In this document: positions 17,589 to 48,081 of the stretch, in pieces
Layout of the letters: every line of letters begins with the position of its first letter
Numbering within the stretch: position 1 is the first letter of the stretch
Assembly (NCBI GenBank): GCA_043782365.1
Contig: JAYWAO010000593.1
Coordinates: forward strand, 1-48,081
Source of the DNA: Deltaproteobacteria bacterium
GTDB lineage: Bacteria > Myxococcota > Myxococcia > Myxococcales > 40CM-4-68-19
DNA length: 48,081 nt
Direction: 5' to 3'
Translations under genes and position numbers: made by a program
The notes under the pieces: generated by a model
Seen by the model: the letters and a program-made list of their open reading frames with translations, nothing else
Databases searched by the model: none
Told to the model about the DNA's origin: nothing

Positions 17589-18371
17589 ATGAACAACCGA
17601 AACCGCAACCTCCTCTCCGCGTTCCTCCTGGCGCTGTCCTGCGCGGCGCTCGCCGGCTGCGGCTCGGGGGCCGACACCTCTTCGACCTCCGACGACCTCG
17701 AGGCCGCCAAGAAGCACGCGTGCAAGACCGACGCGAACTGCAGCAGCGGCTACGTCTGCGTCAAGGGCTACTGCCAGAAGGGGACGCCGCCCGGCGGCTG
17801 CACCACCAACGCGGGCTGTGCCGCGGGCCAGGTCTGCGTCTCCGGGAAGTGCCAGGGGTGCACCTCCACCAGCCAGTGCTCGACGGGCGAGGTCTGCACG
17901 GGCGGCGTCTGCACCACGCCGCCGCCTCCGCCGCCCGGCGGCTGCAACACCTCGCACGACTGCGCCAGCGGCGGCCTCTGCACCAGCGGCCAGTGCGTGG
18001 CGAGCGCGTGCAACCACCGCGCCTCCACCAAGACGGGCATCCGCGCGACGGTGGTGATCACGCGCTACCAAGGCCTCATCCACGGCAGCAACGGCGACCA
18101 CGAGGTCGCCTACGGTACGCTCGGCAACCTGGAGTGGATCCACGACCCGGCGCTGAAGGACTCGAACAGCGTGCAGCTGGCGATGAACGTCCACTCCAGC
18201 ACCGATCCGACCGGCCTGCCCGGCGAGGTGAAGCTCACGCCAGGCCAGACCATCGAGGTGGAGGGCGAATACATCACCGCGGCCTCCGCCAACGCGAGCG
18301 GCAACGCGGTGGTCCACTTCACCCACTCGACCTGCGGCTTCGTCACCATCAACGGGACGACGTACCAGTAG
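17589..18371 (+). CDS. Cys-rich-repeat lipoprotein with a possibly DUF3465-like C-terminal domain
   Basis: ORF 17280..18371 trimmed to MNNRNRNLLSAFLLALSCAALAGCG (lipobox). Four repeats of C-x5-C-x2-G-x2-C-x2-G-x-C, then a poly-Pro linker. C-terminus is ...GQTIEVEGEY...VVHFTHSTCGF. Confidence 0.7.
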   Translation: MNNRNRNLLSAFLLALSCAALAGCGSGADTSSTSDDLEAAKKHACKTDANCSSGYVCVKGYCQKGTPPGGCTTNAGCAAGQVCVSGKCQGCTSTSQCSTGEVCTGGVCTTPPPPPPGGCNTSHDCASGGLCTSGQCVASACNHRASTKTGIRATVVITRYQGLIHGSNGDHEVAYGTLGNLEWIHDPALKDSNSVQLAMNVHSSTDPTGLPGEVKLTPGQTIEVEGEYITAASANASGNAVVHFTHSTCGFVTINGTTYQ

Positions 18372-18398
18372 GCTGGCCGGCGGCATCGAGTCGGTAAC

Positions 18399-18431
18399 CG
18401 AAGGCCGCGTGCAAGTCGCTCGCGGCCTTCG
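18399..18431. terminator. Bidirectional terminator-like hairpin between convergent genes
   Basis: CGAAGGCCGCG (11 nt) / 11-nt loop / CGCGGCCTTCG, a perfect inverted repeat 28 nt after the lipoprotein stop. Confidence 0.5.
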
Positions 18432-18546
18432 TCGCGTTCAGCGCTCGCGGCGCTTGCGCATGCCCGCGAGGAGCAGCAGGAGCCCGGCCCACGGCGAGGA
18501 GCAGGCGCATCGGTGGCCTCGAAAGGCGAGCAAGTGTTACATCAAA

Positions 18547-19023
18547 CTAGTTGTTCGCGGCCCCGGCGGTGATCCACTGCTTCAGCGCCGACACCCACTC
18601 GGCGCCCGGCGCGAAGCCCTGCTTGACGGTCTCGTCGGTGACGCCGTCCTGGTTGCAGGCGCCGCTGCCGAAGGCGGTGCGGGTCGAGGAGTCGAGGGCG
18701 GCCACCAGCAGGCTCTGCTCCGGGTGCCCCGAGACCACGAAGGCCACGCCGTTGCAGGCCGCCTGGTTTCCAGTGAGGCCCGCCGCGCTGCCCTTGACGC
18801 TCGCGTAGGCCTTGGCGGCCGTGGAGAAGTCGAGGGTGGTCTCGATGTCGCTGGTGCGGCCCGGCGCGCCGACCGCGTGGCAGTTGGCGCACTTGTTCAG
18901 GTAGTTCGCGTAGAGGCTGGAGAACTTGGGCTCGAGCGGCGTGGTCGCGTCGGCCCCGGCGCCGCAGGCTGCGAGCAGGCCGAGCGCAGCGAGGGCGAGG
19001 TAGCGGCTGGATGAAGTCTGCAT
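18547..19023 (-). CDS. Monohaem c-type cytochrome lipoprotein (PSCyt-like domain)
   Basis: MQTSSSRYLALAALGLLAACG lipobox. Single CANCH. The layout ...VSGHPEQSLLVAAL... and ...LKQWITAGA resembles the planctomycete-type cytochrome c domain. Confidence 0.7.
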   Translation of the reverse strand: MQTSSSRYLALAALGLLAACGAGADATTPLEPKFSSLYANYLNKCANCHAVGAPGRTSDIETTLDFSTAAKAYASVKGSAAGLTGNQAACNGVAFVVSGHPEQSLLVAALDSSTRTAFGSGACNQDGVTDETVKQGFAPGAEWVSALKQWITAGAANN

Positions 19024-19084
19024 CGGTGTTCCCCTGTCGTGAAGCTAGGTGAGGCTGTGTTGGAGAATCAAAGGCGAAGTCGCT

Positions 19085-22000
19085 TTAGTGCGACGGCTCC
19101 AGATCGAGGCGCGCGAGCTGCGAGGTGATCCGCTCGCGCGCGCCGAGCCAGTCGGGGTTGCGGTGCTCCGCCAGCTGCGCCTGCATCTCGCGCAGCCGCT
19201 TGCCGAGGTCGAGCGGAGAGCCCACGAACCGCTCGCCGCGCTCGAGCCGCAGGCTGGCGGCGGCGTCGAGCAGCTGCAGCATCACCGGGAAGATCGCCGT
19301 GCCCGTGGAGAGGCTCCACGCGTCGGCGTGCACGAAGGCGGCCTCGAGGTGCGCGCGCGCCCCGCCGGCGTCCGCCTTGCGCTGGCTCCAGTCCGAGAGC
19401 TGCGCCTCGGCGACGGCGAGGTCGAGCGTGTCCTCATCGACCCTGCGCGCCGCCGCACGCTGCAGCAGCAGATCGCGCCGCGCGGCGCCGGCGGCCAGGG
19501 CAGCGTCCCACTTGCCGAGCTGCGCCTGGGCCTGCGCGCGGAGACCGTCGATCAAGAGCTGCGCGCTGGCCGCGCCTCCCTGCCTGCCTTCGCTGGCCTG
19601 CGCTGCGAGCGGCTCGGCGGCGTCGAGGTGCCCCAGCGCCTGCTCGGGCTTGCTGGCGCCGAGCGCCGCCGCCGCCAGCCCGAGGTGCGTCGAGTAGAGG
19701 GTGCGCGTCTTCTCCACCGAGGACGGCGTGCCCTCGGTGAGCGCCAGCAGCGACTGGTAGCGAGTCAGCGCCTCGGCAAAGCGGCGGGCCTCCAGGTGGT
19801 AGAGCGCCGCGCGGTCGAGCAGGAGCGGCTTGAACCTCGCGAGCTCCGGGTGCGCGTCCACCAGCTGCTGCGCCCCTTCGATCCCGCGCAGCGCGTCCTG
19901 GCGTCGCTCGAGCTGGAAGTACGCGCGCGCCTTCTCCAGCCGGTGCCGCAGCTCGTCGCGGGCGTCGATCCACGGGAGCTTGTCGCGCTCCTCGAACGCC
20001 CCGAGCGCGATGGCGAAGTTCCCCAGCGCCGACTGCAGGAGCGCCAGATCCTCCAGCACCGCGGCCCGCCCGCGCGGGGTCTCGCGCGAGAGATCAAGGG
20101 CGAGCCGGTAGTGGCTGATCGCCTCCTCTGCCGCGCCCCGGTCTCCCGCCCTGAGGAACCGCTGGTGCGCCGCGAAGCCCCACAGCTGCTGCAGCTCGAA
20201 GCGGGCCCAGAGCGTGCGCCCGGCCGCGCGCAGCAAGGTCCGCACGCGCCCCACCTGCTTCTCCTGCGCGCCGGCGTCGGTCGTGGTGGGCAGCGCACGC
20301 GCCGCCAGCCAGGCCTGCGCGAAGAGGAAGGCCGGCTCCTCGGGCTTGCTCGCGTAGCGGGTCCGGTACTCCTCGAGGATCTGCGCCTCGGTGTGCCCTT
20401 CGGCGAAGCGCTGCTCGATGAAGCCGAGGTGCGCCTCGAGCGCGTCGGTCTGCAGCGTGACGCCGAAGAAGCGGCCCCGCGCATCGCCCGTCTTGCCTGC
20501 CTGCCGCTCCACGTAGGCCCGCTCCAGCACCACCTGCCGGTAGAGGTCCTCGGCGGGCCGGCGCTCTGCCTGTTCGGGCTTCACATAGGCCACCCAGGTG
20601 TCGGCGAACTGGTACAGCAGGTAATCATTGTCCTCGCGGGCAGCCCGGCGCACCGTGGTGTGGACGGCCGAGCGCCGCCGCTCGAACCCCTTGCTCGCCT
20701 TGTAGAGGTCGAACACCTTCGCGCGCACCGCTTCCTGCGTCTGTGGGGTGAGGCCCTCTAGCCGCTTCTCCAGATCGAGCCGGAAGCCCAGCTCGCCGTC
20801 CGCAGCGACGCCGGGTTGGTCGAGCAGCGGCCTGCGCTCCGCTGCCGTGTGCCCGCGGAGCAGCCAGCGGGCGAAGCGGTCGGCATAGGCGAGCCGCTCG
20901 CGCTCACCGAGCGACGGGTGACCCGAGAGCGCGCGGTAGACGCCGAGCAGCAGGGTGCGGGTGGGGAGATCGCGCCCGGCCGCCGCCGCCCGCTCGCCTG
21001 CGAGGTCGAGCACGAGCGGGTCGTCCACCTCGGCGAGGTCGATCGCGAGCAAGAGCGAGGTCGCCTCCTCGCGCTCGCCGAGCACGTCGTGCACCTCGCT
21101 CGCCAGCAGGCGCGCGAAGGCCGCCAGCGCGGGCCGCGGCTCCGCCTGCAGCGGGTCGAGGCGCTGCAGGCGCGCCCGCGCCTCGGCGATGAACGTCTCG
21201 CTCAGCTCGCCGCGCGAGAGCGCCGCCTCCGCGCGCCGGTGCCCGATCAGCTCCAGCAGCAGGGGCGCGAGCGCCGAGCGCGGCACGTTGGGCCCCAGCC
21301 GCGCGAGGGCCTGCGTGTAGTACTCCGACGACTCCAGCTCGCCGAGCGCGAGGTGCAGCGAGATCATCTGCAGCAGCGTCGGGGCGTGCTCGGCGGTGGG
21401 CTCGAGCGCGAGGCGCCGGGCGAGCAGGAGCAGCTGCTCCCAGCGGCTGCCCGAGGCGCTGAGCTGGTCGTCGAGCCGCTCGCGCGTCCAGGAGGGCGGC
21501 ACCGCTCCTTCCAGCGGCAGGGAGTAGACGTGCAGCGAGCCCTCGAACAGGCAGGTCGCGATCAGCCGGTCGGCGGCCGGCGCCGGGTATTGGCAGTTCC
21601 ACTCGGAGCTGGTGAGCTGCTCGGCCCGGCGCACCTCGACGGGAGCGGCGGCGGCGCCGTCGAACGGCACGCGGAAGAGCACGCCGTTGTCGTTGCCGTC
21701 GATGACGCCGTCGAGCGTGGTGTCGTTGAGGAACTGGGTGAAGAAGAGCTGCTTGCCGTCGGCCGAGAACGCGGGAAACCCGCTCAGGCCAGGGAGCTCG
21801 AACTGCAGCTTGACGGCGGCGGCCGCGGGCTGGTCGAGCCGGCGCAGGTGCAGCTCGCGCGCGGCGGCCGCGGCGAAGGTGGGCGAGACCCGCGGGTCGA
21901 TCCGGCGCAGGGGCACGAACGCGACCCACTTCCCGTCGGGAGAGACCGCGGGGCTGCCGGTGTTGGTGACGCCCTGGAGCAGCGTGGTGGGCTCTCCACC

Positions 22001-22501
22001 ACCGAGCGGATAGCGCAGCAGCTCGAAGTCGCCGATGAGCGTCCTGCGCACCAGCGCGGCGATCGCGTCGCCCGCGGGCAGCCAGTCGGCTTGATAGACC
22101 GCGGCGTCTTCGCTGCTCAGGCAGCGGCGCGCTCCGGGCTTGCCGCTCGCGTCGAAGTCCCGCACGCAGAGCTGGCCCGACGCGGCGGTCTGGTACGACA
22201 GATACAGCAGGTGCTTTCCGTCGCGGCTGGGGCGCGGCGCGGTGGAGTCGGCGGCGTCGTCGAGCAGCAAGACCGCGGCGCCCGTGCCAGGCTCCAAGGA
22301 CTTCAAGGACAGCGGGCCGGCTTCATTGTCGACGTAGAAGAGTCGCCCGCCCGGCCCGCCCACGCCGAGCATCTGGTCGGAGGGACCCGCGGTGAGCCGG
22401 GTGGGGCGCAGGACCCCGGAGGGCGCGGCGGCGGCAGGCATCGCCAACGCGGCTGCCAACGCGGCTGCCAACGCGGCCGCCCGCGCGACCTGACTCAGCA
22501 C
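19085..22501 (-). CDS. Secreted TolB-like beta-propeller plus long TPR/helical-repeat protein (about 1138 aa)
   Basis: ORF 19085..23389 trimmed to GTG 22501 (VLSQVARAAALAAALAAALAMPAAAAP signal), which overlaps the ydbL-like stop (GTGCTGA). Propeller blades SRDGKHLLY, SPDGKWVAF, SADGKQLFF. The C-terminal roughly 750 aa are helical repeats. Confidence 0.7.
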   Translation of the reverse strand: MLSQVARAAALAAALAAALAMPAAAAPSGVLRPTRLTAGPSDQMLGVGGPGGRLFYVDNEAGPLSLKSLEPGTGAAVLLLDDAADSTAPRPSRDGKHLLYLSYQTAASGQLCVRDFDASGKPGARRCLSSEDAAVYQADWLPAGDAIAALVRRTLIGDFELLRYPLGGGEPTTLLQGVTNTGSPAVSPDGKWVAFVPLRRIDPRVSPTFAAAAARELHLRRLDQPAAAAVKLQFELPGLSGFPAFSADGKQLFFTQFLNDTTLDGVIDGNDNGVLFRVPFDGAAAAPVEVRRAEQLTSSEWNCQYPAPAADRLIATCLFEGSLHVYSLPLEGAVPPSWTRERLDDQLSASGSRWEQLLLLARRLALEPTAEHAPTLLQMISLHLALGELESSEYYTQALARLGPNVPRSALAPLLLELIGHRRAEAALSRGELSETFIAEARARLQRLDPLQAEPRPALAAFARLLASEVHDVLGEREEATSLLLAIDLAEVDDPLVLDLAGERAAAAGRDLPTRTLLLGVYRALSGHPSLGERERLAYADRFARWLLRGHTAAERRPLLDQPGVAADGELGFRLDLEKRLEGLTPQTQEAVRAKVFDLYKASKGFERRRSAVHTTVRRAAREDNDYLLYQFADTWVAYVKPEQAERRPAEDLYRQVVLERAYVERQAGKTGDARGRFFGVTLQTDALEAHLGFIEQRFAEGHTEAQILEEYRTRYASKPEEPAFLFAQAWLAARALPTTTDAGAQEKQVGRVRTLLRAAGRTLWARFELQQLWGFAAHQRFLRAGDRGAAEEAISHYRLALDLSRETPRGRAAVLEDLALLQSALGNFAIALGAFEERDKLPWIDARDELRHRLEKARAYFQLERRQDALRGIEGAQQLVDAHPELARFKPLLLDRAALYHLEARRFAEALTRYQSLLALTEGTPSSVEKTRTLYSTHLGLAAAALGASKPEQALGHLDAAEPLAAQASEGRQGGAASAQLLIDGLRAQAQAQLGKWDAALAAGAARRDLLLQRAAARRVDEDTLDLAVAEAQLSDWSQRKADAGGARAHLEAAFVHADAWSLSTGTAIFPVMLQLLDAAASLRLERGERFVGSPLDLGKRLREMQAQLAEHRNPDWLGARERITSQLARLDLEPSH
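22443..22478 (-). repeat. 3 x 12-bp in-frame tandem repeat (GCCAACGCGGCT) encoding (AALA)3 in a signal peptide
   Basis: Direct reading of 22443-22478. Two perfect copies and a third with one change. Confidence 0.8.
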
Positions 22502-23121
22502 TTCTTCGTCTCCCAGGCGCCGCCCTCGAGCTGCACCTGGCCTCCGCAGATCACCTCGCCCAGGTGCGCCTTGCGCCACGCCTTCCGCACCTCGTCGAGC
22601 GTCGGCTGCTTCGCTGCGAGCCGCGCCGCGAGGGTGCGCCAGATCTGGAAGCGCCGCCGGTTCTCCCGCTCGAGCAGCCGCGCCTGGCGGCCCGCCGCGA
22701 TGGGCTCGGTGCAGGTGGCCGGGGTCTCGTCGAGCGTGCCGTCGAGCTTCTCGCCGATGCAGCGTCGCAGGAGCAGTTGGTCGAGCAGGTCGGCCTCGGT
22801 GGTCGCCTCCTCTTGCGCCAGCTGCTCGTCGCCCTTGCCCACGGGCACGCCCGCGGCCTCGAGCTGCCCGCGCGTGTAGGGCACCGGCCGCGCCGAGACG
22901 CCCGCCTGCTGCAGCTCTCCGGTCAGCGACGGGAACGAGCCCGAGGCCTGCTCCTCGAGCGCGGTCTTGCGGTCGGCGATGATCATCGGCGGCGCGGTGA
23001 TGCAAGCGCTCGCGAGCAAGAGGAGCGCGAGCGCGGGCAGCCCCTGCGCGCGCCTCGCGGTCGGGTCCTGCGGGAGCGCTTGCCTCGGCGCCTGCTTCGG
23101 GTCCTTCACCGGATCGTTCAT
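22495..23121 (-). CDS. ydbL: YdbL-like (DUF1318) lipoprotein with a roughly 110-aa N-terminal extension
   Basis: Lipobox LLLASAC. The C-terminus ...ERENRRRFQIWRTLAARLAAKQPTLDEVRKAWRKAHLGEVICGGQVQLEGGAWETKKC matches the DUF1318 pattern (E. coli YdbL). ATGA overlap with the upstream giant gene. Confidence 0.65.
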   Translation of the reverse strand: MNDPVKDPKQAPRQALPQDPTARRAQGLPALALLLLASACITAPPMIIADRKTALEEQASGSFPSLTGELQQAGVSARPVPYTRGQLEAAGVPVGKGDEQLAQEEATTEADLLDQLLLRRCIGEKLDGTLDETPATCTEPIAAGRQARLLERENRRRFQIWRTLAARLAAKQPTLDEVRKAWRKAHLGEVICGGQVQLEGGAWETKKC

Positions 23122-26100
23122 CGGGTCCCCTCTTCCTGGCTTGCCGCCGGTGCGGCGGATGGAGTCGTCTCGGGCTCGGGCGGCACGGGCCTGGCCAGGT
23201 ACCGCTCCAGCACGGGCCCGATCGCCGTCCCGCGGATCTCGTCGATGCGGACCGCGCTCGCCAGCCCGCCCAGCTCCAGGGCCAGCGTGGCGAAGCCATC
23301 GTGGAAGCCCATCCGCACGCTCTTCGGGTAGCCGAATTGCAAGCCCCGGCGCATCCGGTTGGCGGCGATGTCGGCGTGAAAAGGGTCATACAGGTCGAGC
23401 AGCCCGCGCAGGTGCGAGGTGCCCAGCCGCACCAGCTCGATGCGGCCCTCGAGCAAGCGGCGCTCGGGCCACAGCACCAGCGCCGCGTTGGCGTCGAGCC
23501 GCTCCTTCTCTCCTGCGGTGACCAGCCCGGTGACGGCGCCGCGGAAGGAGAGCTGGGTGTCCTCGGCCTGGCCGTCGATGAGGATCTGCCCGCTCACTTT
23601 TCCTTGCAGCAGCTCCAGCTCGAGCTGGTCGATCGCCACCAGGTTGCGGTCGATGCGCAGGTTGGCGGCGAGCGGCCCGAGCACGATGGTGCGCGGGGCC
23701 TCTGCCGTCGCCACCCCTTTCTTGGAGAGGTCGACCTCGATGCGCTGCGCGGTGACGAACGGAGTGTCCGCGGTGAACGGCTGCTGCTCGGCGAAGCGGA
23801 GCCGCGAGTAGGCGCTGGTGGTGGCGCCGAACACGCGCGTGAAGCCGCCGTTGTCGCCCAAGAGGAGGTCCTGCGCGACCGGGATGAACCCGTTGAGTCC
23901 CTTCACCGCCAGGCCTTGCGCCGGCATCGCCAGATCGACCTCCTCGAACTTGAGCCCCGCCGTCGCCCGCAGGTAGCTCAGGTCCCCAGACTCCACGCGG
24001 AACGGCACGGTCACGGTGCCCTTGCCGAGCGGGGCGCCGGCGCCGCTCGGGCTGCCGTTCACCGCGTCGAGCCGCTGCGAGAGCACGCCCTCGATGAGCA
24101 GGTTGCGCCGCCCCGGGATCAGGCTCCCCGCGAAGGCCCGCGCCAGCGACCTGGTGGCTGTCTTGAGATCGAGGTTCGGGTCGAGGGGCCCCAGGTCGAG
24201 GCCGCCGTGCAGGTCGAGCCGGGTGCCGCCGAGCGCGTTGGTGAAGGAGGCGCTCTCGATCCGCACCGACCCCTTGGCGTCGGCGCGGGCGGCGATGGCG
24301 AGCTCGACGTCGCCGAGCGGGTACTGCGGCGCCGCGTCTTGCACCAGCGAGGCCGCGGTGAACCCGGCCTTGGCCGTGGCGGTGCCCGTCTCCAGGTCTC
24401 CCTGGGAGTCCACCACCAGCGACGCGCCCAGCTTCTCGCCGCGGTACTTGTGACCCGAGGCCCGCGTGAGCAGCGCCGGCAGGTCGAGGCTCGCCTCGGC
24501 GTGCAGCTTCTTCGGGTCGGCCTGGGTCTGCAGGTGCAGCGTCAGGGCAGGCAGGACGGCGTGCAGGTCGCTCGCGCCGCCATAGTTGAGCCCGGTGACG
24601 GTGAAGTCGAGCGAGGTGGTCCCGCGGATGGCGGTCAGCGGCGCCGGCTCGAAGACGAACTTCGGCGGCAGGCCGGGCGTGTACTTCGCCACCACCGAGG
24701 TGAGCGCCCCCTCGGCGTGGGCCTTCACGGCGAGCGAGTCGAACCTGACGTGGTGCTTCGCGAGCGTGGCTGCCGGGAGCAGCACGCCCGCGAGGCCGAG
24801 GTGCTTGAAGCCGCCGTCCAGCTGGTAGGTGAGCCGCCTGGTCGGGGGATCGAACGCGACGCCCAGGCTGAGCTGGCCGTCGGGCCCGAGCACGCCGTCG
24901 CCCGCGAGCTTCACGTCGAGGCGCGGCTTGGAGAGATCGTAGCTGCCGCCGCACGAGAGCGTCTGCTTCCCCGCGCCGCCGCGGCCGTTGAGGCGCGGGT
25001 CCGCCAGCACCAGCGCGGCCTCGAAGGTGTGGCGCTGCAGCGTGCCGCGCGTCGAGAGCTTCAGCGCGGCCTCGCGGGTGGTGAAGTCGAGCCCGGGGCG
25101 TTGCACCGACAGCTTGGTGAGCGTGCCCAGGCTCTCCTGCTCGACGGTCATCGTCTGGCGCCGGTCGATGCCGCGGGCCCTCCCCTTGGTCTTCCACGAC
25201 AGCCCCGTCCCGGCCCAGGCGGCGCGCTCATTGGCTGGCAGCGCGCCGCGCAAGAGCTCCGAGAGCGGCCCCAGCTCGGCGGCGCTCGCGTCGAGCTCGA
25301 ACGCGACCTCACTGCCCTTGCGGTCGATCGCGGTCTCCACCTGCAGCGGGCCCAGCGCCAGGGTGGCGCGCAGCTTCAACTGCTGCGTCGGGTCGAGCGC
25401 GGTCAGCTCCAACGGCTCGACCTCGACCGTCAGCGACGCGGGCTGCGGCGCGAGGCGCGGACCGCCGCCGCCGTCTTCGATGCCCACCTTGCCCGTCGGC
25501 AGCTTGAAGACCGTGCGCGCGAGCGACTTGCCGTGCACCTGGGTGGCCAGCGCCACGCCCAGCCCGGTGGCCTGGGTCTTCTTCTTGCCCTGCGTCTGCG
25601 TCACCGCGGCGATCTTCCCTTCGAGCGCCACGGTCGCCTGCGTCTGCGCCGGGTGCCCCTGCGCGAAGCGGACGTCGCGCAGGCCCAGCGCGAGCTGCAG
25701 CCCCTCGACCGTGGCGACCGCGCCCTTCGCGCTCTGGCGGAGCTCGCCCAAGCCCATCGTCACCTCGCCGTCGAAGCGCTGCACCAGCGCCTGGCCGGTC
25801 GCCTCCTTCGCGCCCTGCGCCAGCACGCCGTCCACGCCCAGCGTGAGCTTGCGCAGCTCCACCAGGGCCAGCCCGCGCTGCACCAAGTGGGAGAGCGGCA
25901 TCGACGCGTGCACGTCGACCTTGCCGTCGGCGCGCGGCTTGAGCGTGGCCAGCAGCGCGAGGTCGTCCACTTCGAGCGCGGGCTTGTCGCCGGGACCTTG
26001 CGAGAGGCCCTGCAGCTTGCCCTCGAGCGTCGCGTCGCCACCGGCAGCGCGCATCGTCAGCGCCACCGCGCGCACCCGCGCTGGCACTGCTGGCGCGCCA

Positions 26101-27326
26101 GCCGGAGCGGAGTTCGCCTCGACAAAGGAAAGCGCCATCACCAACTGCAGCGCGCGGCCAGCGGCGATCGCGACCGCCTGGCCCGGGATGCGCGTCTCCG
26201 CCACCGGGCTGCCATCGGCGGCCTTGGCTGGCGCCACCGAGAGGTCGAACGTGCCCGTGCCCAGCTTGGCGCCGGGCGGCGCGAGGTCGGCGAAGCGCGA
26301 CAGCAGCAGGCCCAGGTCGGCGTGGCCTGACGCCGCGCGCAGCACGAGCCCCTGCTTCGCGTCGTCGTGCAGCTCCACCTCGGCCGAGAGCTTCGCCGCG
26401 CCGTCCACCAGCGAGAGCGCCTCGACGCGCGCGACCACCAGATCGTGCTCGGGCTCGAAGCCCAGATGCGTCCGCAGGCCGAGCAGGGGGCCCTCGGGCA
26501 GCGCGGGCGCGAGGTCGTGCTTCTTCACCGCGACCTCGAGGGTGACAAGGCAGTCGCGCGGCTTGCAGGCGAGGCCCAGCGCGGCCTCTAGCAAAAGCGA
26601 GCGCGCCGACCCGGCGACCTCCTGGCCTCCCGCGCCGAGCTCCGTGCGCACCACCTCGAGCGCGAGCGGCTTGCTCGTGGTGCCCGACTCGAAGACCGCG
26701 TCGAGGGCCCCGGCGCCCGCGAGCGCCTGGCCCGTCATCGCGAGCGTCCCGATGTCGAGGCGCTCGTACGCGGCGCCCGCCCGGGTCTTCAGCACGGTCA
26801 CGGTGGCGCCCTCGATGAGCAGCCGCTCGAGAGAGACCTGGGACTTCGGCAGGTACTTCTCGATCAGGTGCGCGAGCGGCGGCGTCGGCGGCGGCGGCCC
26901 GGTGATGGCGAGCCGCTGGGTGTTCCACCGCTCGAGCGAGCTCCCGCCGTGCTCGTCCTGGACGACCGCCAGCGCGAGCCCGCTCAGCTTCAGCTCGCCG
27001 AGTCTGGTGCCGAGCAGCGCTCCCACCGACCAGCCGACGTGCAGCTCCTTGATTGTGACCAGATTGGGGGCGACGGCCCGGTCGGCCGGCGCGGAGGGGA
27101 ACGTCACGTCGTAGAGCGACAGCCCGCCGGAGAGCGAGCCCTCGGCGCGGGCGTAGTCGAGGTCGATGCCGCCCCTGTCGTGCGCGGCGGCCCGGATGCG
27201 GCTGCGGAGCGGCGCGGAGTCGAGGTGGCTGAGGACCACGGAGGCCGTCACCACGGCGAGCAGGCCAACGAGCGCGAGCCCGCCGAGCGCAAAGGCAAGG
27301 ACACGCACCACGCGACGAGCGATCAC
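23118..27326 (-). CDS. Giant AsmA-like / YdbH-family membrane-anchored protein (about 1400 aa)
   Basis: ORF 23118..27386. I prefer GTG 27326 (VIARRVVRVLAFALGGLALVGLLAVV TM anchor, GGAGGGG 8 nt upstream) because the 20 codons after ATG 27386 use rare codons. Long beta-rich repetitive body. Operon context with a DUF1318 gene, as in E. coli ydbH-ynbE-ydbL. Confidence 0.6.
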   Translation of the reverse strand: MIARRVVRVLAFALGGLALVGLLAVVTASVVLSHLDSAPLRSRIRAAAHDRGGIDLDYARAEGSLSGGLSLYDVTFPSAPADRAVAPNLVTIKELHVGWSVGALLGTRLGELKLSGLALAVVQDEHGGSSLERWNTQRLAITGPPPPTPPLAHLIEKYLPKSQVSLERLLIEGATVTVLKTRAGAAYERLDIGTLAMTGQALAGAGALDAVFESGTTSKPLALEVVRTELGAGGQEVAGSARSLLLEAALGLACKPRDCLVTLEVAVKKHDLAPALPEGPLLGLRTHLGFEPEHDLVVARVEALSLVDGAAKLSAEVELHDDAKQGLVLRAASGHADLGLLLSRFADLAPPGAKLGTGTFDLSVAPAKAADGSPVAETRIPGQAVAIAAGRALQLVMALSFVEANSAPAGAPAVPARVRAVALTMRAAGGDATLEGKLQGLSQGPGDKPALEVDDLALLATLKPRADGKVDVHASMPLSHLVQRGLALVELRKLTLGVDGVLAQGAKEATGQALVQRFDGEVTMGLGELRQSAKGAVATVEGLQLALGLRDVRFAQGHPAQTQATVALEGKIAAVTQTQGKKKTQATGLGVALATQVHGKSLARTVFKLPTGKVGIEDGGGGPRLAPQPASLTVEVEPLELTALDPTQQLKLRATLALGPLQVETAIDRKGSEVAFELDASAAELGPLSELLRGALPANERAAWAGTGLSWKTKGRARGIDRRQTMTVEQESLGTLTKLSVQRPGLDFTTREAALKLSTRGTLQRHTFEAALVLADPRLNGRGGAGKQTLSCGGSYDLSKPRLDVKLAGDGVLGPDGQLSLGVAFDPPTRRLTYQLDGGFKHLGLAGVLLPAATLAKHHVRFDSLAVKAHAEGALTSVVAKYTPGLPPKFVFEPAPLTAIRGTTSLDFTVTGLNYGGASDLHAVLPALTLHLQTQADPKKLHAEASLDLPALLTRASGHKYRGEKLGASLVVDSQGDLETGTATAKAGFTAASLVQDAAPQYPLGDVELAIAARADAKGSVRIESASFTNALGGTRLDLHGGLDLGPLDPNLDLKTATRSLARAFAGSLIPGRRNLLIEGVLSQRLDAVNGSPSGAGAPLGKGTVTVPFRVESGDLSYLRATAGLKFEEVDLAMPAQGLAVKGLNGFIPVAQDLLLGDNGGFTRVFGATTSAYSRLRFAEQQPFTADTPFVTAQRIEVDLSKKGVATAEAPRTIVLGPLAANLRIDRNLVAIDQLELELLQGKVSGQILIDGQAEDTQLSFRGAVTGLVTAGEKERLDANAALVLWPERRLLEGRIELVRLGTSHLRGLLDLYDPFHADIAANRMRRGLQFGYPKSVRMGFHDGFATLALELGGLASAVRIDEIRGTAIGPVLERYLARPVPPEPETTPSAAPAASQEEGTR

Positions 27327-27536
27327 TGCGGCACCCCTCCGACCCAATTTCGGGCAGCAGCCCCGAGTATGCGAAGAACGTACCATGACGTAACGCGTCG
27401 CCGGCCGGAGGGCTCCATCGGGGGCGGGCCTCCTGCGTTGCGCCGGAATACGTTCGCTGAACGAGGCCGTGGCCAGCCAGCAGCGCGGCCAAGAGGAGGT
27501 CGAGCAGCCGCGCGCGGAGGGCGTCCCGTGCGCGGG

Positions 27537-28535
27537 TCAAGGAGCGAGGCCTCCAGCGGCCAGGCGGCGGGCGAGCTCGAAGTAGAGGGGCACGCCGAAG
27601 AGCACGTTGAACGGGAAGGTGATCGCCAGCGCCGCCGTCAGGTAGAGCGTCGGGTTGGCCTCGGGCAGCGTCAGGCGGACCGCGGGCGGGGCCGCGATGT
27701 AGGAGGCGCTCGCCGCCATCGCGCCCAGCACCGACGCGCCGCCGGGCGAGAGGCCCGCCAGGGTCCCCAGCCAGACGCCGAGCGCGCCGTGCAGCACCGG
27801 GACGACCACCGCGAAGGCCACCAGGAACGGGCCGACCTTGCGCAGGTCGCCCAGCCGCGCGCCCGCCAGCACCCCCAGCTCCAGCATGAAGAGGCAGAGG
27901 GCGCCGCGGAACACCGCGCCCTTGGTGTCGTAGAAGGGCTCGATCGCCTTCCAGCCCCGGTCGCCGATGAGGAAGCCGACGGCGAGGCCGCCCACCAGCA
28001 GGACCATGGTCCGGCCCGTCAGGACCTCGTGGAGCAGCGCGCTGACCGGCCGGCCGCCTGCCTTGGCGGTGCCGATCACGCCGATCGCCAGCGCCACATG
28101 GATGCCCGGGCTCTCCAGGAGCGCCAGCAGCGTGGGCATGAACCCCTCGGCCTCGAACCCCTGCGCCTTGGCGAAGCTGCTGGCGACGATGAAGGTGACC
28201 GCCGAGACCGAGCCGTAGTGGGCGGCGAGGCCCGCGGCGTCCGCCACCCCGAAGCGGCCGAGCCTGCGCAGCAGCAGATAGGCGCTCACCGGCGTGAAGA
28301 GACCCAAGAGGAGCGTCACCGCGGCGGGCCCGGCGATGGCGCGCAGCGAGGCGTGGTGCAGCTCGAGCCCGCCCTGCAGGCCCAGCGACCAGAGCAGGAA
28401 GATGGAGAGGCCCGCGTAGACGTCCTTCGGCAGCGAGAACTCGCTCTTCACCGCGCGGGCGCCGAGGCCGAGCGCAAAGGCGAGGGGGACGGGGGCCAGC
28501 AGGTTCGCCGAGAGGGTCTGCGCGAGGTCGCTCAT
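27537..28535 (-). CDS. SbtA-like sodium-dependent bicarbonate transporter family permease (DUF897)
   Basis: C-terminal 332 codons of ORF 27537..29597, starting MSDLAQTLSANLLAPVPLAFALG. Clear colinear similarity to the SbtA-family layout (…HYGSVSAVTF…, …FRGALCLFMLELG…, …ASASYIAAP…). Confidence 0.8.
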   Translation of the reverse strand: MSDLAQTLSANLLAPVPLAFALGLGARAVKSEFSLPKDVYAGLSIFLLWSLGLQGGLELHHASLRAIAGPAAVTLLLGLFTPVSAYLLLRRLGRFGVADAAGLAAHYGSVSAVTFIVASSFAKAQGFEAEGFMPTLLALLESPGIHVALAIGVIGTAKAGGRPVSALLHEVLTGRTMVLLVGGLAVGFLIGDRGWKAIEPFYDTKGAVFRGALCLFMLELGVLAGARLGDLRKVGPFLVAFAVVVPVLHGALGVWLGTLAGLSPGGASVLGAMAASASYIAAPPAVRLTLPEANPTLYLTAALAITFPFNVLFGVPLYFELARRLAAGGLAP

Positions 28536-43808: not shown

Positions 43809-44022
43809 GCCGGAACCCAAGCACGGAGCGCGCAGCGGACGCAGCAGGCAATTGCCCGACCCGCCCCGGCCGTCCCCGCCCGAACGTTCGCCGTTCACCT
43901 GATCGACTGCGGCCGGACATCGGGCGGAGACCACGGGTGTGCGGCCTCCGCGAGCGTCCGCGCACCTGCGCGCAACTGGCACCGCGTCCGGCGCTGGCGC
44001 ATGGCTTGCAAAATGCCCGAGT

Positions 44023-45951
44023 GTGAAGCCGCTCTACGCCACGCTGGTCGCCCTCGGGCTGGCGGCCTGTGCGACAGGCGGCGGGCCGCACCCGGTGGAG
44101 CAGGTCACGCTGCGCGGCAACCTGGCGTTCGACGACGACGAGATCGTCGACCGGCTGGCGACGCGGCCGCCGCACGGCTGGCCGGTCAAGCTGCGCGAGG
44201 AGTTCGACCCCGTCGCGCTCGACGTGGACGCCGACCGCATCGAGACCTGGTACCGGGAGCACGGCTACTTCGACGCGAAGGTCACCGGCGTCAGGTCGAG
44301 CGAGCGCCCGAGCGGCGGCGAGCAGGTCGAGATCGACGTCGTCGAGGGCGGGGTGACCCTGCTGACCGCGGTCGCCTTCGAGGGCGCCGACGAGCTGCTG
44401 GCGAGGCAGGCGCTCGAGCGCAGCGACCTCATGCCGGTCCTCGGCCAGCCCTTCCTCGAGGCCGGGTACGAGAGCGCCAAGGCGGCGCTGGCGCGCGCGT
44501 TCCAGAGCCGCGGCTATGCCTACGCAAAGGTCACGGGCGTCGTCGAGGTGGACCGCGACCAGCGCCGGGCGACCGTCCGCTTCAAGCTGGCGCTCGGGCC
44601 GCTGACCACCTTCGGCAAGACGGAGATCCTCGGGCTCGACCGGATCGGCGAGAGCACCGTCCGCAGCCGCCTCGCGTGGAAGGAGGGCGACCCGTTCGAC
44701 CCCGATCTCGTCGAGAAGACCGAGGGGCTGCTCTTCGCCCTCGGCGTCTTCTCCTCGGTGCGCGTCTCGTTCGAGCACCGCCAGCAGCGCCCGGTCGCGG
44801 CGATGACCGTCCACCTCGGCGAGGGCACCCGCCACGAGGTGCGGCTGGGCTTCGGGGCGGCCCTCGACAGCACGCACTACGAGCTCCACGGCCGCGCCGG
44901 CTACACCGTCCACGGGATCTTCGACCAGCCGCTGCTCACCTTTCGCACCGACGCGACGCCCGGCTGGTCCTGGCAGCGCGGCGCGCCGTTCGAGTCGGGC
45001 CCGTCGGTCGAGCTGGTGGCGTCGCTCGAGCGCGATGACCTCTTCGTGCCCAGGCTGCACGGGCAGCTCCTCGGCGCCTTCGACCGCCGGCCGCGCATGG
45101 GCTACACGCTGACCGGGCCGCGGACCAGCCTGGGCGTGACCTGGCCGTTCGCGGGCGACGAGCTCAAGCTCTACGCCGGCTGGCAGCTCCAATACCTGAT
45201 CTTCGCCGCCTATGACCCGCTGGTCTTCGGCGGTGAATCCACCTCCGATTGGCTCGGGTACTACTCGCAGCAGCTGGTCTATGACACCCGCGACCTGCCG
45301 CTCGACGCGCACCGCGGGGTCTATGCCGCGATCGAAGTGCTCGAGGGCGGCCCGCTGGCCGGCGGCCGGGTCGGCTTCTTGCGGGTCACGCCCGAGGTGC
45401 GCGGCTATCTCCCCCTCGGCCACCGGCTGGTGCTGTCCGCGCGCGTCCGCTACGGCAGGCTGCTCACCGGGGGATTCGACGACGCGCCGCTGCCGGTGCG
45501 CTACCTCGGCGGCGGCGCCAACGACCACCGCGGCTTCGGCTTCCAGCGGCTCTCGCCCAGCCGGCTCGACAGCACCGGCGCCCGCATCCCGGTGGGCGGC
45601 ACCACCGACGTGCTCGGCAGCGTCGAGGCGCGCTGCGACCTGTTCACCATCGCCGGGCAGTGGCTTTCGGTGGCGGCCTTCGGCGACGCCGGCGACGTCA
45701 CCGGAGCAGGCGGAGCAGGCGGAGCAGGCGGGGCAGGCGGGGCAGGCGGGGCAGGCGCACCCGGCCTCGACCTCTCCCACCTGCACTACGCCGCCGGCCT
45801 GGGCCTGCGCTACTCCACGGTGGTCGGGCCGATCCGCGCCGACGTCGGCTACCGCCTCAACCGCTACGACGCCGCGGGCGCGGACGGGCTGGCCAACCCC
45901 GACCCGGGGAGCCGGCTGGCCTTCCACCTCAGCCTGGGGGAGGCCTTTTGA
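44023..45951 (+). CDS. tamA: Omp85-family TamA/BamA-like outer-membrane protein with a lipobox signal peptide
   Basis: ORF 43939..45951. Proposed GVG start is GTG 44023 (VKPLYATLVALGLAACATGG). POTRA-like repeats, C-terminal beta-barrel, terminal ...RLAFHLSLGEAF. The TamB-like gene overlaps its stop. Confidence 0.7.
   Translation: MKPLYATLVALGLAACATGGGPHPVEQVTLRGNLAFDDDEIVDRLATRPPHGWPVKLREEFDPVALDVDADRIETWYREHGYFDAKVTGVRSSERPSGGEQVEIDVVEGGVTLLTAVAFEGADELLARQALERSDLMPVLGQPFLEAGYESAKAALARAFQSRGYAYAKVTGVVEVDRDQRRATVRFKLALGPLTTFGKTEILGLDRIGESTVRSRLAWKEGDPFDPDLVEKTEGLLFALGVFSSVRVSFEHRQQRPVAAMTVHLGEGTRHEVRLGFGAALDSTHYELHGRAGYTVHGIFDQPLLTFRTDATPGWSWQRGAPFESGPSVELVASLERDDLFVPRLHGQLLGAFDRRPRMGYTLTGPRTSLGVTWPFAGDELKLYAGWQLQYLIFAAYDPLVFGGESTSDWLGYYSQQLVYDTRDLPLDAHRGVYAAIEVLEGGPLAGGRVGFLRVTPEVRGYLPLGHRLVLSARVRYGRLLTGGFDDAPLPVRYLGGGANDHRGFGFQRLSPSRLDSTGARIPVGGTTDVLGSVEARCDLFTIAGQWLSVAAFGDAGDVTGAGGAGGAGGAGGAGGAGAPGLDLSHLHYAAGLGLRYSTVVGPIRADVGYRLNRYDAAGADGLANPDPGSRLAFHLSLGEAF
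45703..45756 (+). repeat. 6 x 9-bp perfect-phase tandem repeat (GGAGCAGGC x3, GGGGCAGGC x3) encoding (GAG)6
   Basis: Read directly. Lies inside the barrel region of the Omp85 gene (…GDAGDVTGAGGAGGAGGAGGAGGAGAPGLD…). Confidence 0.9.
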
Positions 45952-48081
45952 CGGGCCAGCGCAAAGGCCCGCCCGCGGCGCTGCAGCGGAGCCTCTGGGC
46001 GAAGGCCGCCCGCCGGTCGGGCCTCGGCCTGCTCGCGCTGCTCGCGCTCGTAGCCGGCGCGGTCGCGCTCTCGTTCACGCTCGTCGGCACCGACTGGGCC
46101 CGCGAGCGCTTGCGCCGCTTCGCCGAGGCGCAGCTGGGCGCCCTCTTCGCGGGGACGGTCTCGGTGGGCGAGGTCACGGGCTCGCCGCTCTCCAGGCTGC
46201 GGGTCGCGGGGCTGCAGCTGCGCGGCCCGGACGGCGAGCCGCAGATCGCCGTCGGCCCGGTGGAGGTGGCCTGGAGCCCATCCTCGCTGCTCCACCAGCA
46301 GGTGCGGGTGCTCGAGGTGACCCTCGACCATCCGGTGGTGCGGGGCAGGCTGCTCGCCGACGGCACGCTCGACCTCGCCTCGCTCCTGCGGCCGGTCCCC
46401 GCGACGGCCGCTGCCAGCGCGCCCGCCGTCGCGAGCGCGTGGACGGTGGTGGTGGAGCGCGTGGTGGTGCGGGACGGCGCCCTGGCGCTGCCCGCCTTCG
46501 AGAGCACGGTGGCGCTCGGGGGGCTGCAGGTCGACGGCGCGCTGCGCGTCGACCATGGCCGGTTCGACCTGGACGCCAGCCGCATCGCCGCGAGCTACGG
46601 TGAGCCTGGCCGGGCGCTGGCGGTGACGGGCTCCGGCCGGCTCTCGATCGGGCCGGGGCGAACGCTTACTCCTCTGCGGGAAGGCGGCCCGGGCGCGGCG
46701 GAGAAGGCCGGCTCGACGATCAACCTCAGCGGCCTCGACCTGCGCGTCGGCGCCTCGCGGGTCAGGGTCTCGCAGGCGACCCTGGAGAGCAGCGGCGCGC
46801 TCTCCGCCGCGCTCGAGGTGGAGGCGGCCGCGGAGGACGCGGCCCGCTTCGCACCCGGCGCCGAGGTGGCTGGCGCGGTGGAGCTGGGCGGAACGGTGAC
46901 CCGCGAGCGCGACGGGCAGCCGCTGGTGGCCGTCCTGCACGGGCGGGCGCTCGGCGGCCAGTTCACCGGCGCGCTCTCCTTCGACCCGTCGGCTCCGGCG
47001 GTGCGCGGCGAGCTGCACGGCGTGGAGCTGGTCCCCCCCGTGGGGCCCAAGGCGCAGGCCAGCTTCGACCTGAAGCTCGACCTCGCGGGCTTCACCGCCG
47101 CCGCTGCCAAGGGCACGCTGGAGCTCGGCGCGCGCGGCGTGGTCGCCGGGCAGAGGGTGGACGCGCTCCGGGTGCGCGCCTCCATCGCCTCGGGAGTCGT
47201 CGTCCTCGACGGCGAGGTCCGCGTCCCGGGAGCACACGCCGGGCTCCGCGGGAGGGCCCGTGTCGGTAATGAACTGGTTATCGAGACGGCGCGCCTGCGG
47301 GCCGAGGTCCGGGACCTCAAGCTCTTCCGCGCCTTGCGCCCGGGGCTGTCCGGCTCAGCGGCCCTCGATCTGACCGCGCGCGGCGCCCTCACCTCGCTCT
47401 CGGCGCGCGGCTGGCTGCGCGCGAAAGACCCGGCGCTGGCGCCGCTGCGCGCGGCGTCGCTGCGGTTGGGGTTCGACGTGAGCGGCCTGCCCGGCGCGCC
47501 CGCTGGCAACGCCCAGCTGGAAGTGCTCGGCGCCGCGGTGGGCCAGGAGCCCCTGGGAACAGTGAGCGCCGAGGTCAATACGCGCGGGCGCCGATCGTAC
47601 GAGGTGAAGCTCAAGAGCAGCGGGCCCGGTGCCACCTACGGCGGTAGCCTCTCCGCGCGCGTCACGCGGGAGCGGGCGGCGGTCCGCGTCGCGCTCGGCG
47701 ACCTCGCCGTCACCGCGCGGGGCCTCGCCTTTACCGGCCGCGGGGGGGAGGTGCTCCTCGGCCGGGACGGCGAGCTCAGCGTGCGCGACCTCGCGCTCAC
47801 CTCCGCGGCCGGCGGCGTGCAAGCGAGCGGAGCAGTGACGCTGCCTCGCGCTGGAGCCCGGTCGCGCGGCGGGCGCCGGCCTGGCAGCCTTCCTGGTGGC
47901 CTTCCTGGAGGCCTTCCCGAGAGCCTGCCTGAGGGTCGCCTCGAGGTGCGCGTGACCGGGGCCGACCTGGCCAGGCTCCGCGCCGCCCTCGCGCCTGGGC
48001 TAGAGCCGCTGGCCGGCAGGATCGACCTCGTGGCCGCGGTGCTCAGCCAGGGAGGCGCGCTCTCGCTCAAAGGCACGGCCA
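45948..48081 (+). CDS. tamB: TamB-like (AsmA-like superfamily) giant protein, N-terminal about 710 aa; continues beyond the window end
   Basis: Not in the ORF track (open-ended). My translation from TTG 45948 (GGGGGAGG upstream, TTGA overlap with the tamA-like stop) gives LTGQRKGPPAALQRSLWAKAARRSGLGLLALLALVAGAVALSF (signal anchor), then a repetitive beta-rich body with no stop up to 48081. Confidence 0.6.
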   Translation, partial: MTGQRKGPPAALQRSLWAKAARRSGLGLLALLALVAGAVALSFTLVGTDWARERLRRFAEAQLGALFAGTVSVGEVTGSPLSRLRVAGLQLRGPDGEPQIAVGPVEVAWSPSSLLHQQVRVLEVTLDHPVVRGRLLADGTLDLASLLRPVPATAAASAPAVASAWTVVVERVVVRDGALALPAFESTVALGGLQVDGALRVDHGRFDLDASRIAASYGEPGRALAVTGSGRLSIGPGRTLTPLREGGPGAAEKAGSTINLSGLDLRVGASRVRVSQATLESSGALSAALEVEAAAEDAARFAPGAEVAGAVELGGTVTRERDGQPLVAVLHGRALGGQFTGALSFDPSAPAVRGELHGVELVPPVGPKAQASFDLKLDLAGFTAAAAKGTLELGARGVVAGQRVDALRVRASIASGVVVLDGEVRVPGAHAGLRGRARVGNELVIETARLRAEVRDLKLFRALRPGLSGSAALDLTARGALTSLSARGWLRAKDPALAPLRAASLRLGFDVSGLPGAPAGNAQLEVLGAAVGQEPLGTVSAEVNTRGRRSYEVKLKSSGPGATYGGSLSARVTRERAAVRVALGDLAVTARGLAFTGRGGEVLLGRDGELSVRDLALTSAAGGVQASGAVTLPRAGARSRGGRRPGSLPGGLPGGLPESLPEGRLEVRVTGADLARLRAALAPGLEPLAGRIDLVAAVLSQGGALSLKGTA
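47883..47930 (+). repeat. 4 x 12-bp in-frame repeat encoding GSLP-GGLP-GGLP-ESLP
   Basis: Read directly in the TamB-like frame. Confidence 0.8.

Follow-up and report, generated by a model that had tools for sequence, protein, structure and literature searches.

Gene organization of the locus

The window analysed here, i.e. the whole stretch of 48,081 nucleotides (nt) of contig JAYWAO010000593.1 from a Deltaproteobacteria bacterium of the Myxococcota (assembly GCA_043782365.1), has a G+C content of about 72% and carries a module of four consecutive genes, all on the minus strand, which represents a variant of the AsmA-like intermembrane bridges that has not been described before. The first gene encodes a giant AsmA-like protein (23118-27326, 1402 amino acids (aa)) and is followed by the gene of a small lipoprotein (22495-23121, 208 aa), by the gene of a secreted protein of 1138 aa with a PD40 beta-propeller and a helical part resembling tetratricopeptide repeats (TPR) (19085-22501, in the following PD40/TPR protein), and by an optional fourth gene for a lipoprotein with a CxxCH motif (18547-19023, 158 aa). 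The genes are tightly packed: the ATG of the small lipoprotein overlaps the TGA of the giant gene as ATGA, the GTG start of the PD40/TPR gene lies within GTGCTGA and overlaps the lipoprotein stop, and a gap of 61 nt separates the PD40/TPR gene from the CxxCH lipoprotein gene. Re-reading of the sequence gave the same coordinates, overlaps and gap as an earlier annotation of this DNA (the original prediction).

The GTG start of the giant gene at 27326, which gives the length of 1402 aa, is preceded 7 nt upstream by the Shine-Dalgarno sequence GGAGGGG, and the database representative of the protein is likewise 1402 aa long; an alternative ATG at 27386, 60 nt upstream of the GTG, has no Shine-Dalgarno sequence. 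The start of the PD40/TPR gene is confirmed by the family profile, which begins at the same point. A profile search showed that the module is single-copy in the genome (5.8 Mb, 89.5% complete). As had been stated before, no YnbE-like small open reading frame (ORF) is found at the module: PF13617 (YnbE) gave no relevant match genome-wide, and the intergenic gaps between the module genes are too short to hold one. Weak PF07027 matches on contigs C596 and C12 were considered as a second DUF1318/YnbE copy in the genome and rejected, as they were not reproduced by the small-protein or YdbL profiles.

Distribution and conservation of the gene order

A genome scan with the PD40/TPR alignment as query yielded 66 loci, mostly from metagenome-assembled genomes (MAGs) of Myxococcota, and further from Nitrosomonas halophila Nm1, Nitrosomonas sp. 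ANs5, Methylotuvimicrobium buryatense 5G, Nitrospira MAGs, Bradymonadales, Silvanigrella and one Oligoflexia MAG. In profile scans the giant turned up at 59 of these loci and the small gene at 64, with constant order wherever the contig reaches, and the order giant-small-PD40/TPR is kept in 5 metagenome loci with unrelated flanks. We found the same order of the trio in Corallococcus macrosporus DSM 14697 and in a genome from the genus of the window organism; ABF92463.1 of M. xanthus DK1622 belongs to the 90%-identity cluster of the C. macrosporus small protein. The original prediction hinged on synteny of the trio in related genomes, and the trio proved to be syntenic across Myxococcota and far past close relatives. 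In a sample of Myxococcota genomes a match was obtained in 89 of 301, with 67 of 122 in one family and 28 of 29, 18 of 18 and 7 of 7 in its large-genome genera, one of these genomes being C. macrosporus DSM 14697; weaker matches fall in frames of 2300-2850 aa.

Overlaps between start and stop codons recur across the related loci (giant/small in 40 of 59, 32 of these by exactly 4 nt, and small/PD40 in 34 of 64, with gene starts chosen heuristically), and the translational coupling is therefore no chance. Neither YdbH nor YnbE was found in the two member genomes searched, the window genome and that of Methylotuvimicrobium buryatense. Public names of the giant are 'hypothetical protein' or, for relatives in some sources, 'translocation and assembly module TamB'; the small protein is listed as 'DUF1318 domain-containing protein' or 'lipoprotein', and the third as 'PD40 domain-containing protein', 'TolB family protein' or 'tetratricopeptide repeat protein'.

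The small lipoprotein: a YdbL domain fused to an N-terminal module

The small lipoprotein consists of a signal peptide, a lipobox cysteine (Cys40, invariant in 62 aligned sequences), an N-terminal module (N-module) delimited by alignment (residues 40 to ~112, 22786-23004) and a YdbL/DUF1318-fold domain (residues 113-208, 22498-22785). PF07027 (DUF1318) matches the window protein with 19.5 bits (E=0.0015), under the gathering cut-off of 27, and matches five of six relatives (E up to 10, best 1.4e-6). For profile comparisons we built YdbH, YnbE and YdbL alignments from E. coli ydbH-ynbE-ydbL (NC_000913.3) and eight further loci found via PF11739; hhalign of the 62-sequence lipoprotein family with the YdbL alignment gave a probability of 96.8% (E=3e-10, residues 113-207). 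The AlphaFold2 model of the YdbL-type half has a predicted local distance difference test (pLDDT) score above 92, and its sole significant Foldseek match in the PDB is 28oj, the crystal structure of E. coli YdbL (E=3.7e-4, TM-score 0.79, root mean square deviation 2.4 Å). A sequence search of the PDB with the small-protein profile missed YdbL, which was recovered by the fold search alone. In the family, E124, N154, W203 and K206 show either no variation or a conservation of at least 90%, and they align with E35, N58, W104 and K107 of E. coli YdbL, whose mutation is reported to impair or abolish YdbL function; of the five residues described as conserved and required for YdbL function outside the YnbE interface, four are kept (PMC13464000). 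Four invariant cysteines (C121, C137, C192 and C208) are an addition specific to the lipoprotein family. Judged by sequence and predicted fold, the C-terminal half is a genuine YdbL homologue, which bears out the YdbL-like/DUF1318 lipoprotein of the original prediction; the 'extra N-terminus' of about 110 aa claimed along with it turned out to be about 70 mature residues (Cys40 to ~112).

Directly after the lipidated cysteine the N-module shows the motif C-[IV]-x-x-P-x-V-x-x-D-x-x-T-A-L-E-x-Q-A-x-G. In Bdellovibrionota and in many metagenomes the N-module forms a lipoprotein of its own, 83-90 aa long, with giant and propeller gene still on either side. The product encoded between these two genes in Silvanigrella and Oligoflexia has just 86 aa, comprising signal peptide, lipobox and N-module without a YdbL domain. 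Stand-alone lipoproteins of 86-90 aa sit between giant and PD40/TPR gene in loci L071 (3629-3886), L076 (7633-7890) and L093 (378-650), and protein P0166 is a further stand-alone form. A search of 1.84 billion representative proteins with the N-module profile yielded 220 clusters; among the best 150 of these, 66 have a length of 76-115 aa and 44 of 166-215 aa, and the short ones may include fragments. Of twelve short forms read, ten are complete lipoproteins of 83-90 aa that carry another conserved motif ('...vLNGe') close to the C-terminus, and two (P0133 and P0139) look like truncated or frame-shifted fused forms. One stand-alone N-module gene lies between a giant C-terminus (8.5e-22) and a PD40/TPR N-terminus (1.3e-18); a second such gene overlaps a gene fragment on its upstream side, and a 1134-aa Tricorn_N/TPR protein comes after it. 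The N-module is present in all 64 loci with a detected small gene and the YdbL-fold domain is missing in some lineages. Because stand-alone forms without the YdbL domain sit in the module, the N-module lipoprotein is, on these sequence criteria, the constant partner and the YdbL domain an optional fusion.

A YnbE-YdbL gene fusion by homology was ruled out by null comparisons, among them a single-sequence comparison of the N-module with YnbE; the same position, size class and lipid anchor are what is left. N-module-like stretches also occur within large proteins (P0109 with 841 aa, P0136 with 1550 aa and 9 stretches, P0228 with 1960 aa and 6 stretches), in which the lipoprotein module may have been fused to larger proteins or may be repeated.

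The giant protein

The giant has one transmembrane-like N-terminal segment (residues 26-55). A homologue search gave 29 proteins and an alignment of 28, in which AsmA (PF05170) matches 12 and DUF748 (PF05359) 16 members at E up to 0.01; the YhdP, DUF945 and T2SSN models match one member each. These Pfam matches are confined to the N-terminal ~150-200 residues. When members were scanned singly, the AsmA match exceeded the gathering score in four of five (31-41 bits vs 29.8, residues ~13-211), and the AsmA-matching members align with the window giant over 97% of its length. The AlphaFold2 model (residues 233-1422, from a 50-sequence alignment) has a mean pLDDT of 79 and contains 58 strands with a median length of 11, amounting to 57% strand and 7% helix. 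The strands are amphipathic with period two, the hydrophobic/polar alternation of 2.7 exceeding all 200 shuffles (1.45); the strong amphipathicity and the near lack of covering helices therefore imply a large exposed hydrophobic face in the predicted fold. Conservation is strongest in the last ~350 residues, with invariant columns clustering at residues 1050-1409.

The Pfam matches of the relatives, the single membrane anchor and the predicted all-beta amphipathic fold support placing the giant in the AsmA-like group. The original prediction of a YdbH-like giant of the AsmA family thus stands as far as the AsmA-like character is concerned, but not for the YdbH family, membership in which is ruled out by the PF11739 and hhalign results given below. 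A TamB (PF04357) C-terminal domain is missing in the giant; genome-wide, PF04357 matches lie on contigs C21, C47 and C432. The genome holds at least three other AsmA-like genes, two of them with the TamB C-terminal domain (contigs C21 and C47).

The PD40/TPR protein

The PD40/TPR protein starts with a cleavable signal peptide, lacks a lipobox, and comprises a TolB-like PD40 beta-propeller (about residues 30-345, 21467-22414) and, probably, a helical TPR-like solenoid of ~790 residues (19088-21466). The PD40 (PF07676) match of 41.7 bits (E=1e-10) lies above the cut-off of 20.9 and therefore identifies a PD40 propeller, while the TIGR02800 (TolB) match (E=2.7e-6, residues 77-196) reaches 26.6 bits vs a cut-off of 343, so that the protein is no TolB orthologue. 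The 57-sequence family profile matches TolB propellers in the PDB at 5e-15 (profile positions 47-169); no match to the TolB N-terminal domain was seen in the TIGR02800 and PDB profile searches. Evidence for the repeats comes from a TPR_11 match below cut-off (E=0.053) and from PDB matches of 1e-3 to 0.1 between the C-terminal two-thirds of the family profile and IFIT1, alpha-SNAP and designed TPR proteins. The 'TolB-propeller/TPR protein' of the original prediction is accordingly firm in its propeller (PD40 and PDB TolB matches) but weak in its TPR part.

Family alignments reveal an acidic loop LNDTxxDGxIDGxDNGV in the propeller (residues 258-274, 21680-21730), in which D260, G265 and D271 are invariant and T261, N262, D264, I267, D268 and G269 at least 90% conserved; it would resemble EF-hand or dockerin calcium-binding loops. 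The same propeller contains the conserved cysteines C112, C303 and C317. The core of the signal peptide (AALAAALAAALA) is encoded by a threefold 12-bp repeat (22443-22478, minus strand).

Among the weaker Myxococcota matches, long forms of the protein were examined at loci L091 (2094-10208, minus strand, 2705 aa) and L092 (1718-10204, minus strand, 2829 aa). Over its first ~1160 residues the L091 protein aligns with almost the entire PD40/TPR family (E=1e-51), and a CHAT domain lies at its end (7.6e-64); the L092 protein gives a confident family match over the propeller only. The long-form gene of L092 is located directly downstream of a small-lipoprotein homologue with no intact giant ORF before it, and that of L091 is preceded by a chemoreceptor gene with neither giant nor small gene adjoining.

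The CxxCH lipoprotein

The fourth protein has a lipobox cysteine, a CxxCH haem-attachment motif (residues 45-49, 18877-18891) that is at least 90% conserved in 40 sequences, and two further invariant cysteines; no Met or second His column of this alignment reaches 90% conservation. Cytochrome_CBB3 matches around the motif are weak (25 of 40 members at E below 1, best 9e-4), PSCyt1 (PF07635) matches one of 40 members (E=0.099), and a PDB search with the family gave nothing significant. From its sequence motif it is plausibly a haem protein. What the original prediction called a PSCyt-like monohaem lipoprotein downstream of the trio does have a single CxxCH motif and the 61-nt gap, but the PSCyt assignment hangs on that single member, and the gene is optional, being present in 39 of the 66 loci in the profile scans. 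In the same-genus genome (L090, G268) the trio is kept and no CxxCH gene is present in the 4 kb downstream; the fourth gene therefore varies even among close relatives.

Comparison with known systems

Our literature search returned E. coli and Pseudomonas papers on YdbH, and no paper on this module or on DUF1318 outside YdbH work. For YdbH to function in E. coli, YnbE is needed, with YdbL as an accessory (PMC11126948). The module resembles YdbH-YnbE-YdbL in that an anchored AsmA-like giant comes first and is followed by a small lipoprotein and a YdbL fold, in the same order and with overlapping frames (PMC11126948, PMC13464000); in both systems the small lipoprotein is constant and YdbL dispensable, and YdbL E35, N58, W104 and K107 are conserved. 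In contrast to YdbH with its 879 aa, the giants measure 1200-1400 aa and have no Pfam YdbH-like match. The N-module is without sequence similarity to YnbE and is fused here to the YdbL domain, whose four invariant cysteines are missing in E. coli YdbL, and neither the PD40/TPR protein of ~1150 aa, which is always present, nor the CxxCH lipoprotein, which often is, has an E. coli counterpart.

With TamA-TamB and with YhdP, AsmA and DUF748 proteins the giant shares a similar size, an N-terminal anchor with, to go by the Pfam matches of its relatives, a putative AsmA/DUF748 first repeat, and a long predicted beta-sheet body. Unlike TamA-TamB, the module has no PF04357 domain and no Omp85 partner, and has lipoprotein-based partners instead. 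TolB of the Tol-Pal system has a PD40-type propeller as well and provides the best PDB sequence matches of the third protein (5e-15), but the match covers just a part of the propeller, a probably helical solenoid of ~790 residues is attached in addition, and no Tol or Pal genes lie nearby. The long CHAT form of L091 has a homologous propeller and helical-repeat part, whereas the PD40/TPR protein stops after the repeats and lacks the CHAT (caspase-like) domain.

Proposed function and alternative explanations

How phospholipids are delivered to the outer membrane is still open, and knowledge rests on E. coli YhdP, TamB and YdbH and a few partners. We consider it fairly probable (roughly 0.6) that the module forms one envelope machine around an AsmA-like intermembrane bridge, which would be kin in logic to YdbH-YnbE-YdbL and would constitute a separate subfamily with different partners. 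From homology we infer a function in lipid transport. The giant would span the periplasm, 1200-1400 aa being the size of TamB or YhdP and not of YdbH, and the lipid-anchored N-module would cap or dock its C-terminal end at the outer membrane, as YnbE does for YdbH, with the fused YdbL domain acting as a chaperone in cis for the contact between N-module and giant. The PD40/TPR protein might keep the outer-membrane end in position, acting in the periplasm as scaffold or regulator, and the CxxCH lipoprotein would be an accessory. The cargo would most likely be phospholipid moving between inner and outer membrane. More tentatively, and on balance doubtful, the module could represent a separate and widespread bridge class with its own docking lipoprotein (the N-module, of roughly 60 residues, as a functional analogue of YnbE, independent or diverged beyond recognition) and an obligate TolB-like/TPR organiser in the periplasm, which would be a principal outer-membrane lipid route in Myxococcota, Bdellovibrionota, Nitrospira, Nitrosomonas and methanotrophs; YdbL fusion, CHAT extension and haem lipoprotein would then be lineage-specific regulatory add-ons.

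Several results weigh against the bridge interpretation. The giant itself has no significant Pfam match (AsmA with E=0.12 on a C-terminal stretch, no N-terminal match), and a Foldseek search of the PDB with the 1190-residue model returned generic large beta-sheets (ApoB100 belt, LptD) with TM-scores <0.2 and neither TamB nor YhdP, an outcome which we regard as uninformative rather than negative. A sequence-profile search of the PDB with the giant family was empty. Because Foldseek gave only generic sheets of low TM-score, the evidence for the fold consists of prediction and of the Pfam matches of relatives, and the groove fold has no confirmation from a solved structure. PF11739 (YdbH-like) matches none of the 28 family members, nor the giant, nor anything genome-wide at E up to 1, and hhalign of the family with a small comparison set of six aligned YdbH sequences (E. 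coli plus further loci) gave probabilities of ≤4.6% over the full length and the C-terminal region. The N-module compared with a 9-sequence YnbE alignment reached a probability of 8.5% locally, covering signal peptide and lipobox only, and 0.1% globally; its AlphaFold2 model shows mainly short helices at low confidence (pLDDT 60-80), where YnbE is a beta-hairpin. In M. buryatense (locus L031) the giant lies ~7 kb upstream (G001:C1:3606994-3610539), and three ORFs on the opposite strand lie in between; no other module was seen to be interrupted. The part played by the PD40/TPR protein in the bridge is guesswork, and to our knowledge a haem-motif protein has no precedent in lipid-bridge systems.

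These points leave room for other functions of the giant. [quoted passage not shown] We nevertheless think this unlikely, as the module contains no Omp85 partner (the Omp85 gene of the window pairs with another AsmA-like gene 20 kb away), the PF04357 domain, missing in the giant, is carried by two other proteins of the genome, and among the partners a known homologue exists only for the YdbL domain, YdbL being part of the YdbH lipid bridge. Still less probable is a structural or regulatory envelope tether in the style of Tol-Pal, in which propeller and repeats bind peptidoglycan or outer-membrane partners and the giant is a spacer. TolB proteins are the closest solved relatives of the propeller, the PD40/TPR protein is the best-conserved partner and always present, and Myxococcus handles outer-membrane partitioning unusually (PMC12132463); the TolB match is, however, confined to the propeller and far below the TIGR02800 cut-off, no Pal, TolA, TolQ or TolR-like gene belongs to the module, and an amphipathic, helix-free beta-sheet of more than 1000 residues is hard to square with a mere spacer.

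About as improbable as the tether is the idea that the PD40/TPR protein derives from the long PD40-TPR-CHAT proteins by shortening and loss of the protease, so that the recognition scaffold alone has been retained from a machinery for controlled proteolysis or quality control of the bridge. It draws on the alignment of the L091 protein with the whole PD40/TPR family and its terminal CHAT domain, on the small-lipoprotein homologue directly before the 2829-aa form of L092, and on the reported degradation of free YdbL by DegP in E. coli (PMC13464000). No CHAT domain is present, however, in the window protein or in any of the 66 relatives, and the L091 form adjoins neither giant nor small gene; moreover the idea concerns regulation and is compatible with the bridge, not exclusive of it. 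That the genes are mere neighbours without a functional link is hardly credible and effectively refuted by more than 60 loci in which order and overlaps recur between unrelated flanks, in Myxococcota, Bdellovibrionota, Nitrospirota and Proteobacteria.

If the module is an AsmA-like bridge, such a bridge can carry other, strictly conserved partners, namely a small lipoprotein different from YnbE together with a large protein of propeller and helical repeats. As to the YdbL domain, some lineages have it fused to the lipoprotein and others do without it, which offers a natural experiment on the roles of YdbL and of YnbE-type caps. As the module is present in the tractable Myxococcus xanthus DK1622 and Methylotuvimicrobium buryatense 5G, it is directly testable.

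Neighbouring genes and further observations

The upstream neighbour on the same strand is an unrelated gene for an Sbt_1-type transporter, and the genes downstream of the module are on the opposite strand or unrelated. A scan of 18000-28000 for promoters and terminators yielded nothing exceeding shuffles. On the plus strand, next to an Omp85/POTRA (TamA-like) gene (43939-45951), lies an AsmA-like gene downstream that is cut by the window end at 48081 and has a DUF748 N-terminus scoring 53 bits, above cut-off; a second AsmA-like system had been predicted at 44023-48081, and this Omp85/POTRA and DUF748/AsmA-like gene pair is what we found there.

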